Below are positions 17,878 through 57,749 of a stretch of 64,000 bases of DNA, piece after piece. The notes below the pieces were generated by a model, which searched no databases, was not told where the DNA came from, and saw nothing but the letters and a program-made list of their open reading frames with translations. Numbering within the stretch: position 1 is the stretch's first letter; each line of letters starts with the position of its first letter. Both the position numbers and the translations under genes were made by a program. The DNA is from Eledone cirrhosa (Eukaryota), in assembly GCA_964016885.1 (NCBI GenBank), contig OZ024740.1, positions 397,358,001-397,422,000 of the forward strand, written 5' to 3'.

Positions 17878-18028
17878 TTTCGTTTCTGAATTTGTTTAGC
17901 AAGATTCTTTATCTGAAATCGTGTGTTGAAACCGATATTGTTATACTTTGGGAGGGTCATGTTGCCAATAAGAAACTGGTGCGTGTGTTTCTTATTGGCA
18001 ACATGACCCTCCCAAAGTATAACAATAT
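17878..18028 (-). mobile_element. Minimal family A fold-back insertion
   Basis: Perfect 42-bp arms 17935-17976 / 17987-18028, tail 17878-17934, (TA)n on both sides. Confidence 0.85.
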
Positions 18029-18689
18029 ATATATATATATATATATATATATAACCCATGCTAGCATGGAAGATAGACGTTAAATGATGATGATGATGAT
18101 GATACATATATATATATAGGGTGTTCCCCAAAAATGTATACATACATCAACAGCATTCTAATGAATATTGCCTGTACAGGTAATCAAAGTATGTATACAT
18201 TTTTGGGGGATACTATTTTGGGGGGATATATATCATCATCATCATCATCATTTTACGTCCGCTTTTCCCTGCTTGCAAGGGTGGGATGGGAACTGATTCT
18301 GGCTTGATTTCTACAGCTGGATGCCCTTCCTAACACCAACCCCATTTACAGTGAGTGCTGGGTGCTTTTTTTGCCGTGGCACCTCCACGACCACTTTGCA
18401 GTGGAATGATAGGGACTCCAGTCCTATCATCTCATTTGTACAGCTGAGTAAACTGGAGCAATATGAAATAAAGTGTCTTGCTCAAGGACACAACACATTA
18501 CCCGGTCTGAGAATTGAACTCACAACCTTTTGATTGCAAGGCCAATGCTCTAACCACTAAACCATATATATATATATACACACACAGACATATATGTATA
18601 TATGTATATATATATATATATATATATATATATATATATATATATATATATATATATATATATAATAATAATAATAATAATAGTAATAA

Positions 18690-18905
18690 TAATAAAATTG
18701 AAGACTAAAATCCAAAGAGGGCTGGATAAGGAAAATATATATCAAATATATAAGAACCGTAGAGCAAATATTTATTAAAATAACAGATTTTTTGAAATAT
18801 CCAGTTCTGCGTTTACAGATTGACTTTGTTAGTTTCAGAAGATCCCGTTAAGGGTGAAAGCAGCGATTCTTTGCTTAAACTTTAATCTGTTATTTTAATA
18901 AATAT
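18690..18905. mobile_element. Family F fold-back mini-element
   Basis: Homologous to 37232-37550; inverted junction near 18789; flanked by TA/TAA repeats. Confidence 0.75.
18831..18881 (+). ncRNA. Variant type-I hammerhead, family F (CAGAAGA core)
   Basis: AGTTT-CAGAAGA-TCCCGTTAAGGGT-GAAA-GCAGCGATTCTTTGC-TT-AAACT. All three stems form; the core has U4A. Confidence 0.6.
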
Positions 18906-18930
18906 ATATATATATAATATATATATATAT

Positions 18931-19480
18931 ATATTGTTATGCTTTGGGAGGGTCATGTTGCCAATAAGAAACACACGCACCAGTTCCTTTCACTCCAATT
19001 TATTATAAGTTAAATTTATAAATTTCCGGTTGATTGGTTGGTTCCACAACCGGACGGTTGTTCATATATTGTCAAAGTTCTTTCGTCACACATTCTGTGA
19101 CCTCTTCAGTGACTGGGGATTTTTTTCTTTTCACCCGGATGTAACACATGCGCAAACTAAGCACACAACACACACAAAAAAAATAAGATGGCGTAGGACA
19201 GAACAAAGGAGAGGCACAAAAACAAAGAAAAGAATCCCCAGTCACTGAAGAGGTCACAGAATGTGTGACGAAAGAACTTTGACAATATATGAACAACCGT
19301 CCGGTTGTGGAACCAACCAACCAACCGGAAATTTATAAATTTAACTTATAATAAATTGGACTGAAGGCAACTGGTGCATGTGTTTCTTATTGGCAACATG
19401 ACCCTCCTAAAGCATAACAATATCGGTTTCAACACACGTTTTCAGATAAAGAATCTTGCTAAACAAATTCAGAAACGAAA
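18931..19480 (+). mobile_element. Family A fold-back element with an HHR on each strand
   Basis: About 200-bp arms 18931-19130 / 19224-19423, 57-nt tail 19424-19480, (TA)n flanks. HHRs at 19071-19113 (-) and 19241-19283 (+). Confidence 0.9.
19241..19283 (+). ncRNA. Minimal type-I hammerhead, family A
   Basis: GTCA-CTGAAGA-GGTCACAGAATGTGTGAC-GAAA-GAAC-TT-TGAC. Other copies at 19071-19113 (-), 19701-19743 (-), 32136-32178 (+) and 37882-37924 (+). Confidence 0.7.
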
Positions 19481-54029: not shown

Positions 54030-55550
54030 TTAGTTCCCCCAGTGTTGGTCTATCCTTTCACCTATGCTACAAGCTGTCTCGCCTATGTATGTTGTTGTCA
54101 TGTTTCTGCAAGTACCCTCTGTACATCTTATGCTATAGACTACGTTTCTAGTTTTACAGTTTATCCGGGGGTTTACCTTACATATGATACATTTCCTATT
54201 AGTACAGTGGGTTTTCTTAAAAGGGTAGGTTTTGCTGATCAGGGATTTTATGGTGGTTCCTGGCTTTTCTACCACCTTAATCTTTAAATGGGTCTTTCTC
54301 AGGGCCTTTCTACACTGGTTAGCTAATTTCCCTCCAGGGGTAGCGTCCACAAACATGACACTCTGGTATCTCTGATTGTCGTACCATGAGGTGGCTTTCC
54401 CTATCTTATGTCTAGCCCTATCTAAGCTATTCCATGATTTGCTCCTGTATAATGGGCAAATTCCTTTCATGTCCAGTTCTATGAGGGTCTTATACTTCTC
54501 CATGGCTCCTTCGTATACTCTGACTCTGTCTCTTTGGTTGTAGCCAGAGAACTGCATGCGGTTGATGAAGTGTTGGATGTGTCTTTCCATTTCTGTTGGG
54601 TCGTACATGCAGGACACATTCTTCATCACTCGTACCAAATCTGCGATCAGAATATTAAACTTAGCACTACTGGACATTGCTGAGTTTTTGAGTATCAGGT
54701 ATTTGGAGGCCATGGGTTTAGCATAGTGTGAGTGGAGAATTTGGGCTCTCTCGTCTATAGTGTTAATCCAGAGTTCCGTGTCTAATACAGGTAGTCTATT
54801 GTTAGGGTGTTTGGAAGGGTAGTCGATAGTTACAGTTATACTCTGGTGTATGGAATTAGCTATCTGCTGGATGCTTTCCATTGTGCTATGTTCTAAATAA
54901 AACTTGTTAGTGCTCTCTAGTGGGGATGTTCTTATAACTATATTGATATCGTCTACATAACGAGAGTACATGATGAGGTCTATGGAGCTCTCATTAAGGA
55001 GATCTTTAAATCTCCTTTCCCACCATACCATAAAAAGGTTGGCAACATCACCAGCTATGCTGACGCCAATGGCTGCTCCCTCATTTTGGGTGTAGGTCTT
55101 CTCGTTGAACTTGAATATGTGGCTCTTTAGGGTAGTTTTGATACTAGCCCCTATTGCATGTGCGACCATTTTTCTTACCTGATCATTGTTTTGGGGGGTC
55201 CGTATAGCTTTCGTCCACCCAATCCACCTTCCCATGGGAGTCTTTTTTGCCATTGAGGTTATGGTGGGGGGTCTACCTGTTATGGGTCTACTAGGGCAGA
55301 AACGTCTAAGGTCATGGCTGTCTAGGTAGTTAGTGTCGTAGGTAAGTCTAAGTAGGAGGCCCAGTTCATCTGTGTCGACGTCGCAGAACTCCACCTCACT
55401 CTCAATGATCATCTCCACACATTTTTCCACAGCAAAATCAATGTTAATGGATGGGTACAGTGATACCACATCCATGCTGCCTATTATGCAGTTGGATAGG
55501 TTCCTGTTTTTGTTGCACTCACTGATTCTGCTGAGGAGGTCCTCTGTACT
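54030..55550 (-). pseudogene. 5'-truncated PLE RT + GIY-YIG endonuclease
   Basis: STEDLL...SMDVVSLYPSI, GAAIG..IAGDVANLFM, YSRYVDD, LPVLD, Cys linker, NVVYSIRC...YIGET. A 1-bp G-run deletion near 54035 truncates it; the intact C-terminus is seen at 55778-56077. Confidence 0.9.
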
Positions 55551-56314
55551 GTGTAGAAAACCAGTGTAGAAAGGCCCTGAGAAAGACCCACTTAAAGATT
55601 AAGGTGGTAGAAAAGCCAGGAACCACCATAAAATCCCTGATCAGCAAAACCTACCCTTTTAAGAAAACCCACTGTACTAATAGGAAATGTATCATATGTA
55701 AGGTAAACCCCCGGATAAACTGAAAAACTAGAAACGTAGTCTATAGCATAAGATGTACAGAGGGTACTTGCAGAAACATGACAACAACATACATAGGCGA
55801 GACAGCTCGTAGCATAGGTGAAAGGATAGACCAACACTGGGGGGAGCTAAAAGGACGAAAAAACGGGTCAGTACTATACGAACATGCCAGACAACAACAC
55901 GACGGTAACATAGACAACATAGAAATTAGAATAATATCTAAACATAGAAATGACCCAGCAGATAAGCAAATCAGAGAGGCCAGTGAAATAGAACTTAGAA
56001 GGCCAAGACTAAACAGAAAGAATGAATGGAATAACAACAACACCCAAACAAATAACACTGACCTAAGAGAAGTATAAATAAATAAATAAATAGATAAATA
56101 AATAAATAAATACATACACAAGCACAATAACAACAAACACATATAAACACACACTAGTAAAGATAGAATACATTAACCAATACACAGTCACCCAATCACG
56201 AACACACACGCAAACGCATGCGCAAAGAAGACAAAATAAAATAAATAAATAAATATATAAACAGACTAAATAAAGATGGCGTAGACATACAATATAACAG
56301 GAGGAAACAATAGC

Positions 56315-56356
56315 ACCACTGACGATGTTGCAGATGTGCAACGAAAGAACTTTGAT
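56315..56356 (+). ncRNA. Minimal hammerhead, family A-related subfamily
   Basis: ACCA-CTGACGA-TGTTGCAGATGTGCAAC-GAAA-GAAC-TT-TGAT. Weak stem I; stem II covaries with family A. Confidence 0.65.
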
Positions 56357-57749
56357 AAACTATATATATGTGTTTGTGTCTATATTGTATCTGTATTATT
56401 TTTGACCATTGGTCAGTCAATGGCAACATTGAGGACCGAATAAATTAGATTACCGATATAAAAGACACAGAAGCGAAAAGCGAAAAGCGAAAACCAACCA
56501 AACAGTGAGTGTGTTCTGTTATTAATTCTGGCAATATTACACAAATATGACCCTCCCCAAGTATAACAATATTTGTTTCGACACACAATTTCATATAAAA
56601 AACCTTGCAAAACTATATATATATATATATATATATATACAGATAGATATAGATATAGAAATATGTACCTTAGTAGCTGGAAAAGTGGATGTTAAAATGT
56701 TAATGATGACAATGATGATGATGTATATATATATAGAAACGTATTGTATAGAATGGTGAACTCAAAACAAAAACAGAATGTCTTGAACATAACACAAGAA
56801 AAATACTGAATCCATATGAGCATGATGTGGTCTCCACACCTGACTTGTCACATAATGTGACAACTCATATGACCCATGCAAGCATGGAAAAATAAGCATT
56901 ACATGATGATGATGATGATGATGATACATATAAATATATATACTTACATATATGTTTATTGCATATAAACATATAGTACATGCTTTCATATACACCCCTA
57001 ATATCATCATCATCATTATCACTGTTTTACGTCAATGTCTCCACGCTAGCATGGGTTAGATTGGTTGTCCTGTTGTGGGCAATGCCAGGTCAGGTGACCA
57101 TGTCTTGCTCATACAGGAACTGATTTGGGCTTGATTTCTACAGCTGGATGCCCTTCCTAACACCATCCTCATTTACAGTGAGTACTGGGTGCTTTTTTGT
57201 TGCGAGACCTCCACGACCTCTTTGTACTGGGAGCATATTGTCTATATGCTTCAGCTTCGGCTTGTACCCATGGGGGGGGGGGTCTTCTGTATTACTGCAT
57301 GACATGTATGGAAATCGACTAGAGTCTATGTAGATGAGGAAGGAACGTAGTGAGTGAAGAGAAGCTGTGCTGAGAAGAACCCATCCACTCATGGAAGTTG
57401 AAGTATAATTTATAATTTTAAAACTGATGATAGGAAACAAAATATATATTCATATTTTTGTGTTTCTTTATGCCTTTTATTAAAATGACGTTTTACTGAA
57501 TGACATGTCATTCATTACTTTTAAAAACAAATAAGAAATAAACATCTATTAAGAACATTTGTTAAATGATGTTTTCACAGAAATAATAATCATAGACTCT
57601 TTTGATGAATATGATGGTGTATTTGCTTTTTAATTAACAAAGATAGAATATCATATCATGGAATTGAGATATAATAGAAATGGCATTTAATCAATACCGC
57701 AAAAATGGAGAAGAGTTCAACAAGCCTGAGACATTATGTTGCTATGAGT

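Follow-up and report, generated by a model that had tools for sequence, protein, structure and literature searches.

Inverted Penelope-like element insertions in Eledone cirrhosa carry a tail on one arm and suggest priming from both target strands at two fixed RNA sites

Penelope-like elements (PLEs) are the closest retrotransposon relatives of telomerase. We analyzed the PLE copies in a 64,000-nucleotide stretch of the genome of Eledone cirrhosa (assembly GCA_964016885.1, contig OZ024740.1, positions 397,358,001 to 397,422,000 of the forward strand; hereafter the window), together with related copies elsewhere in the genome. These copies belong to three families (A, B and C), and many of them consist of two head-to-head arms inserted in a run of TA, with a short tail on one of the arms.

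The closest described systems are summarized here from the portions of the papers that were available. PLEs of the Neptune/Nematis type have a reverse transcriptase (RT) open reading frame (ORF), a C-terminal GIY-YIG endonuclease with internal cysteines, a CX2-5CxxC linker, pseudo-long terminal repeats (pLTRs) in partial tandem, (TA)n targets and a hammerhead in the pLTR (PMC8557442). The linker is common to Neptune and Nematis, absent in Penelope/Poseidon and modified in Hydra (PMC8557442). Further, the same paper depicts an inverted copy that carries a tail on one of its ends as the typical form and ascribes the tail, which is "often" one-ended, to resolution by the endonuclease (PMC8557442). 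Minimal hammerheads within pLTRs are described in PMC4209133. For the green anole Poseidon element PAc, RT was shown in vitro to start at two sites, one on each side of the tail, and both target strands were nicked and extended; a dimer was predicted, and the later insertion steps were left unvalidated (PMC11167929). In Penelope families of Adineta vaga, inverted repeats were read as the result of self-priming on antisense RNA (PMC3846280). The completion of PLE insertion and the origin of the inverted arms and the one-sided tail are stated as open in PMC8557442 and PMC11167929, and the available portions of PMC2377424, PMC13282606 and PMC12910113 held nothing further on mechanism. Our literature search, in which coverage was poor for subscription papers including key older PLE reviews, found no paper on a strict one-tail rule, on a two-cDNA model of PLE inversions or on edited PLE copies as barcodes, and none linking two start sites or both-strand extension to inverted arms. 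The inverted layout is a published PLE hallmark and is not new, and the core idea of two primings is preceded by the in vitro anole data (PMC11167929). The new part is the evidence on mechanism.

Element positions are counted from site 1, defined as the final C of ...ATAAC. The initial annotation of the window had described four family A copies and a related 3.3-kb element, here family B, as products of a single insertion architecture with fixed outer ends. All five were found, each with one tailed and one tail-less arm placed head to head between TA runs; one arm stops at ...ATAAC(AATA) and the other 43-56 nt further. The tail-less outer ends are at 18027, 18932, 32610 and 38053 (family A, ...ATAACAATA followed by TA) and at 53314 (family B, ...GTATAAC followed by TA). 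The tailed outer ends are at 17877, 19481, 32861 and 37565 (family A, approximately 56 nt beyond site 1) and at 56615 (family B, approximately 43 nt). The right flank of family A copy 4 is a fragment of an RTE element instead of a TA run. Beyond these five copies, the window holds three further family A pieces and a family C copy (Table 1).

These copies resemble Neptune/Nematis elements in their ORF layout, linker, pLTRs and (TA)n targets, in the 5'-truncated copy that lies inverted at their 5' end and in having a tail on one end, and possibly also in a pLTR hammerhead. They differ in tail length, which is 43-60 nt here (approximately 120 nt in family C) and 30-40 nt in the elements described (PMC8557442). 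Like PAc, they insert into an AT-rich target and would use two internal RT start sites within the ORF start, around the tail, with both target strands nicked and extended and a probable dimer; unlike PAc, which belongs to another clade and is without the linker zinc finger, the sites lie approximately 25 and 70-85 nt into the ORF rather than 111-118 nt (PMC11167929). PAc priming was reported as non-homologous, whereas each end here has 2-5 nt in common with the TA run, and the available PAc text does not connect the two start sites with inverted arms (PMC11167929). Head-to-head inverted pLTRs, junction palindromes and asparagine-rich ORF inserts are shared with Adineta vaga Penelope, in which an optional tail of 31 bp extending the ORF start is comparable to the tail here (PMC3846280).

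To count the outer ends, we used exact-match probes. In the 3.0-Gb genome, a family A 28-mer gave 24,436 exact matches and a family B 29-mer gave 6,389, while the reversed controls gave 0. The genome sample comprised the first 100 matches per family in genome order on contig C1, which corresponded to 80 regions for family B and 74 loci for family A. Note that the anchor patterns are the exact sequence just upstream of site 1 and are blind to tail and inversion, and that the end counts cover all anchors within the sampled loci. All 111 family A outer ends fell at two sites (54 at site 1 and 57 at the tail end), as did 108 of 111 in family B (66 and 42, respectively). Thus, 219 of 222 ends lay at the two sites, and the outer endpoints are fixed, as initially proposed, rather than random. 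A TA run of at least 8 nt directly adjoined 99 of 111 ends in each family, with the overlap between end and TA run mostly 2-5 nt. Better TA matches exist within the tail (+26 to +30) and were used by 0 of 222 ends; therefore, the two end sites are set by more than base pairing.

Approximately half of the sampled insertions were head-to-head inverted pairs and the remainder were single arms or tandems. Both outer ends were readable in 77 pairs, among which 75 had one tailed and one tail-less arm, two had a tail on both arms and none was without a tail. Compared with free choice at the observed end frequencies, this one-tail rule has p ~2e-20 (7e-11 and 2e-11 for the individual families). The single architecture therefore holds for inverted pairs and is not the sole layout. 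Of the two exceptions, L159 is flanked by mirrored sequence and represents a later inverted duplication, and one of its arms carries a later SINE-like insertion (SINE, short interspersed element) with a target duplication. Locus L295, also tail/tail with mirrored flanks, is likewise a secondary inverted duplication that includes host DNA. The rule was obeyed by 12 of 12 long family B pairs picked from a protein search and by nine clear family C pairs, with three further family C pairs ambiguous. Unlike the account in PMC8557442, in the portion available, the tail is thus at exactly one end in nearly all pairs, and the data favor two primings.

In the 75 mixed pairs, the tail-less arm was longer in 36, the tailed arm in 26, and the arms were within 15 nt of each other in 13. 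Four tailed arms (L134, L228, L172 and L164) consist of the tail only and share no or almost no sequence with their partner; therefore, neither arm was copied from the other. The overlap of the arms noted at first is accordingly present in most pairs and not in all. Since the longer arm may be of either kind and tail-only arms exist, simple fold-back is not supported as the general route. Fold-back of a tail-primed cDNA would leave the unduplicated middle on the tailed arm, and a cDNA primed at site 1 would have no tail to copy. Three window copies (the 3.3-kb element and those at 17878 and 32611) carry this unduplicated stretch on the tail-less arm, which fold-back of the tailed arm cannot yield. 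Of the two routes in the initial annotation, cDNA fold-back is thus not supported as a general one, and it may apply to tandem or perfectly symmetric copies.

Arm lengths were uncorrelated overall (Spearman 0.15, p 0.21). Near-equal arms were in excess (13 pairs versus 2.6 by permutation; for arms longer than 150 nt, 6 versus 1.5, p 0.001), and a truncation hot spot and internal palindromes account for part of this excess. The annotated range of arm lengths, up to more than 1 kb, agrees with the 3.3-kb element, in which the arms align over 1,003 nt at 96%. The annotated AAC overlap at 17974-17976 is present in the sequence, and overlaps of at least 2 nt were found at 12 of 26 direct joins (16% expected, p 3e-4). 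Some extra junction bases are clearly templated from nearby sequence, those at the family B junction of the window included, and short insertions of fold-back type occur at L257 and L180. The symmetric junctions of L185, L197 and L300 are palindromes without a loop. Among the 66 junctions compared between sampled loci, none was common to two different loci.

Two insertions of the genome sample, L275/L276 and L259, were hypermutated from A to G on the sense strand. In the tandem copy L275/L276, the internal pLTR and the inverted tailed arm have 33 of 33 A-to-G sites in common and the outer pLTR has none; a 32-nt edited motif of L275 occurs genome-wide only in those two arms. In L259, which is non-tandem and has a longer tail-less arm, 22 sites are common among 24 and 23, and the arms differ at 5 of 203 positions. 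The arms of L300/L301 are identical over 1,019 nt, with approximately 94 scored changes each, and 159 and 47 single-arm changes were counted in L299 and L298, respectively. Note that L298, L299 and L300/L301 were found using patterns built from the first two edited cases, so their number is not a measure of frequency. The edited family A set comprises L275/L276, L259, L298, L299, L300/L301, L302 and L287/L293 on contigs C1, C4, C6, C22 and C27. Each edited arm carries 36-159 A-to-G changes, with up to 159 in 1.1 kb, versus 0-3 other transitions, and different edited insertions differ pairwise at 55-176 positions. The edited fraction by 5' base was 0.37 for A, 0.28 for T, 0.20 for C and 0.17 for G; by 3' base it was highest for G (0.40). 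The neighbor preference of ADAR agrees with this bias toward 5' A/T and 3' G, and the hypermutated copies appear to be ADAR-like hyper-edited retrocopies. In most edited copies, the changes leave out the tail and the final 90-130 nt upstream of site 1, as if a protein-binding region must remain intact. The simplest reading of the A-to-G patterns common to both arms would be that one edited sense RNA was copied twice. The edited copies mostly indicate a sense template, unlike the reading proposed for Adineta vaga (PMC3846280).

In L287/L293, the tailed arm has T-to-C changes and A-to-G changes occur in its tail and in the tail-less arm, and the mixture of changes in this insertion fits a hairpin transcript of an older inverted copy that was primed at both sites. 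As predicted donor of L293, we considered L292, which has the same junction with swapped arms; the junction lies at a truncation hot spot (-265) at which, by a rough estimate, approximately one chance recurrence is expected. Several non-editing differences rule out L292 as the direct donor. Edited family B copies were sought with one pattern and none was found. Locus L260 and related copies form a family A subfamily in which several A-to-G changes in the region of -310 to -280 are fixed and may derive from an edited ancestor.

On balance, we consider it probable that PLE insertions in (TA)n arise when RT is primed by both cut target strands, at two fixed sites of a single sense RNA, and the resulting cDNAs are joined head to head. 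The use of two priming positions from the two nicked strands, the other route in the initial annotation, is supported by the one-tail rule (75 of 77 pairs), by the finding that either arm can be longer, by the tail-only arms and by the private A-to-G patterns common to both arms. The element protein, probably as a dimer, would bind the RNA at the pLTR/ORF start and nick both strands of the TA run. A few A-U pairs would aid priming, which one 3' end would begin at site 1 (+2 to +5) and its counterpart at the tail end (+46 to +65). Both cDNAs would halt at variable positions, sometimes at the same RNA break, and their 3' ends would be joined via 0-5 nt of microhomology or short templated insertions, so that each templates the second strand of the other. 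Single-arm copies may reflect one priming that failed or remained very short. Occasional transcripts of inverted copies could form hairpins, undergo adenosine-to-inosine (A-to-I) editing and be recopied. A more specific version has, in our judgment, an even chance of being correct: one dimer on one sense RNA would make the tail-less cDNA from one strand and the tailed cDNA from the other, and their joining would take the place of ordinary synthesis of the second strand. This one reaction would then account for the inverted repeats, for the tail on one side and for the palindromes at junctions, and germline-fixed ADAR marks would serve as single-molecule barcodes, including for hairpin recopying with the tail on the other arm.

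In L1 twin priming, both 3' ends at the target use a single RNA as template, and joining of the cDNAs through microhomology gives an inversion; the second primer acts at a variable internal site, and the arms do not overlap. Priming of one RNA by two target 3' ends, with microhomology at the join, is the same logic as proposed here, and the contrast with L1 drawn in the initial annotation was overstated. The difference that stands is that both start sites are fixed here, 40-60 nt apart, so that the arms usually overlap as inverted terminal repeats, whereas the 5' arm ends of L1 are variable. We rejected an L1-type twin-priming product for these copies, in which both outer ends are fixed and most arms overlap.

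An alternative is that one long tail-containing cDNA folds back and that the endonuclease trims the arms to site 1 and the tail end during integration, in line with the resolution by which the tail is explained in the available text of PMC8557442. This would account for the common edits, for the excess of symmetric junctions (13 versus 2.6) and for the short fold-back insertions at L257 and L180; further, the tailed arm of the tandem copies L275, L101 and L093 corresponds to their internal pLTR, a part that a long cDNA would contain. However, the template of the tailed arm must then be removed afterwards in 36 of 75 pairs and for the tail-only arms, the loopless palindromes (L185, L197 and L300) are hard to reach by self-priming, and target-primed reverse transcription (TPRT) from both start sites was demonstrated in vitro (PMC11167929). 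We regard this alternative as unlikely, although it is the strongest of those considered. If both strands were primed instead by two ribonucleoproteins (RNPs) with two RNAs, common variants would come from a shared donor locus or from later conversion between arms. The lack of overall correlation between arm lengths, the 5 differences in 203 positions between the arms of L259, and unedited arms whose mutual similarity does not exceed that to the best other copy agree with such an origin. Independent action, however, is not expected to leave 75 of 77 pairs with exactly one tail, the edited motif of L275 is confined to its two arms, and the excess of equal lengths persists for arms longer than 150 nt; we consider two RNPs improbable.

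Self-priming on an antisense transcript, as proposed in PMC3846280, would explain palindromes at some junctions and the arms with T-to-C changes, namely the tailed arm of L287/L293 (approximately 24) and a nearby arm of L298 (14); antisense segments were thus copied at least twice. However, five hypermutated insertions are A-to-G on the sense strand, in both arms wherever both span the edited region; the A-to-G changes in the tail and tail-less arm of L293 fit read-through of a hairpin RNA from the sense priming site; and one tail per pair is left unexplained. This origin therefore seems quite improbable to us. Least probable is that the inversions are assembly or amplification chimeras, a reading that is largely refuted. 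The mirrored-flank tail/tail cases L159 and L295 do resemble secondary inverted duplications. Chimeras, however, mirror the flank and cannot put a tail on one arm only; the flanks of mixed pairs are unrelated wherever unique sequence was compared, and the arms have diverged by up to 4-8%. Further, both the ends and the strand-switch joints recur in Illumina reads from three other samples. In these three runs of restriction site-associated DNA sequencing (RAD-seq; amplified libraries), 2,394-2,698 reads per run exit family A at +5 into TA, depth drops approximately 30-fold beyond the tail, many family B molecules end at +51, and strand-switch joints lie at identical coordinates in all three runs, with head-to-head and tail-to-tail joints not distinguishable.

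Several points weigh against dual priming on one RNA. The informative edited pairs are only three. Sharing in the tandem L275 and the perfect palindrome L300 is also explained by fold-back of one cDNA, and gene conversion or an edited donor outside the assembly could account for all three pairs, L275 and L300 having many common sites. Two of the approximately seven edited insertions fall within the small genome-order sample, for which we have no explanation, and the T-to-C arms of L287/L293 and L298 show that copying of antisense segments can occur. Where pairs are unedited, an arm does not resemble its partner more than it resembles the best other copy (ties or better in 14 of 29 family B and 13 of 19 family A cases), and because of this the unedited pairs say little on whether one RNA was used. 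L266 is a genuine tail/tail pair. The pairs were curated by hand, two that were counted are doubtful (L152 and L168), and ten loci were omitted in which the second piece had no recognizable outer end (L177, L190, L207, L221, L222, L226, L231, L232, L240 and L243). Extra or mismatched bases are present at 39 of 65 junctions, which were left unscored for overlap. The mechanism is deduced from fixed copies, with no intermediate observed, and the TA runs mask target-site duplications. Finally, PMC11167929, in its available portion, reports no homology between primer and RNA and no difference between strands in start site.

With tens of thousands of young copies of at least three families in one genome, the PLE mechanism becomes countable. 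Dual priming at fixed sites makes sharp predictions for the in vitro system that exists for another PLE. The edited copies make the template strand, and the choice between one and two RNAs, testable from genome sequence alone, and they would show RNA editing written back into the germline.

Family A has a repeat unit of 4,151 nt and family B one of 4,134 nt, and both occur as tandems and inverted pairs. The family A unit has its own coding capacity, with a protein approximately 65% identical to that of family B across RT and endonuclease; we therefore rejected family A as a non-coding derivative. The 3.3-kb element of the window is a 5'-truncated family B copy. A search of the same genome with the family B protein gave 83 scored matches with identities of 95-100%; many lie in 1,217-codon open frames and some in tandem or inverted pairs, which points to a young family. 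L104 and other copies contain a single ORF of 1,210 amino acids (aa) with the RT motifs DKSG, DVVSLYP and YSRYVDD. Residues 250-420 are 47% asparagine. A C-X4-C-X2-C linker at residue 1077 (criteria from PMC8557442) lies upstream of a GIY-YIG motif at residues 1098-1118 with two cysteines, followed by histidines at 1131-1152; this CCHH pattern was compared by eye with the description in PMC8557442, with no profile match. Pfam RVT_1 matched the family B fragment of the window at E 1.4e-5, below the Pfam cut-off, and the whole 1,210-aa protein gave no match to Pfam or to PDB sequences. The nearest named homologue was an Octopus vulgaris protein (69%); the list otherwise held almost only unnamed proteins and no clade labels. 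Families A and B are related coding PLEs that contain the endonuclease (EN+) and Neptune-type motifs.

In both families, the ORF starts approximately 20 nt before site 1 and reads through the tail, so that the tail corresponds to the opening codons of the ORF that follows in a tandem unit. Folding of the tail region gave no significant structure (z -0.1 to -1.6). A putative minimal hammerhead core with a 6-bp stem II was located using a custom pattern at -199 (A) and -243 (B), with fold z-scores of -0.6 and -1.1, respectively. An Rfam scan of the 64-kb window gave 142 matches at E <=1, all of them microsatellite or hairpin look-alikes of miRNA and snoRNA families, and no hammerhead. The 5' ends of arms cluster just upstream of a AAGATGGCG motif, which we take to be YY1-like, at -255 to -273 in family A (14 of 124 arms) and -288 to -299 in family B (6 of 127); examples in the window are at 19185-19193 and 56273-56281. 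This cluster is likely the transcription start of a pLTR promoter.

Table 1. PLE features of the window; remarks give element positions relative to site 1 where known.
Feature	Position	Strand	Remarks
Family A copy 1, tailed arm	17878..17976	-	-36 to +60
Family A copy 1, tail-less arm	17974..18028	+	-48 to +5; 3-nt AAC overlap with other arm
Family A copy 2, tail-less arm	18931..19130	-	approximately -220 to +5; putative hammerhead core
Family A copy 2, tailed arm	19132..19480	+	approximately -311 to +60; putative hammerhead core from 19245; ORF start and tail 19398-19480
Extra family A copy	19547..19897	-	tail-less arm -261 to +5, inner palindrome 19796-19856, deleted sense arm with outer end lost
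Single tail-less family A arm	31736..32332	+	-614 to +5; contains end of endonuclease coding region
Family A copy 3, tail-less arm (longer one)	32609..32767	-	-153 to +5
Family A copy 3, tailed arm	32767..32860	+	-31 to +60
Family A copy 4, tailed arm	37566..37828	-	internal deletion
Family A copy 4, tail-less arm	37830..38054	+	-256 to +5, short internal deletion
Single tailed family A arm	38184..38398	+	-182 to +60
Family C, head-to-head	51956..53099	.	tail-less partial-tandem arm 51956-52641 (-) and tailed arm 52639-53099 (+), tail approximately 120 nt
Family B tail-less arm (longer one)	53313..55550	-	-2270 to approximately 0; 5'-truncated within RT
522-aa open frame, family B	54030..55598	-	RT core, thumb, CX4CXXC linker, GIY-YIG core; frameshift near end
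Family B junction	55551..55558	.	6-8 extra bases repeating right-arm start (templated insertion); sequence inspected directly
Family B tailed arm	55559..56613	+	-1040 to +48; putative hammerhead core at 56319

Family C has a non-coding tandem unit of 522 bp with a putative hammerhead core at 52850 and gave 1,532 exact pattern matches genome-wide (examined loci, L303-L332). Non-LTR retrozymes, short non-coding hammerhead tandems, have been proposed as non-autonomous PLE derivatives (bioRxiv 10.64898/2026.07.22.740005). Family C shares with them the short non-coding tandem unit and the putative hammerhead and differs from the available description in its two-site, one-tail inverted (TA)n layout (bioRxiv 10.64898/2026.07.22.740005). 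Family C may thus be retrozyme-like, and its layout points to mobilization by a PLE protein.

Families A, B and C frequently insert into each other's flanking TA runs, which results in clusters on one microsatellite (for example L148, L219, L223, L258 and L308). In L175, one small inverted family B insertion is present four times in tandem together with its TA flanks. Elsewhere in the window, TA-flanked elements of unrelated families with inverted arms or internal palindromes were observed at 12943-13980, 40684-41251, 17664-17766, 37241-37530 with 18700-18900, 23846-24567 and 31142-33507. A decayed element at 25300-27400 (+) has an RT-like frame (YRDD; RVT_1, E 0.05) with cysteine motifs and a YVG motif downstream of it, and resembles another PLE clade. 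Long interspersed element (LINE) copies of RTE-like type, 5'-truncated, 83-93% identical and in both orientations, lie at 20559-22422, 28667-29912, 38938-40617 and 42962-44900, and the fragment flanking family A copy 4 is one of this kind. Further, a 533-aa frame at 58445-60046 (-) has an apurinic/apyrimidinic (AP)-like endonuclease domain (Pfam Exo_endo_phos, E 9e-13) and is likely a LINE of the CR1/L2 type.

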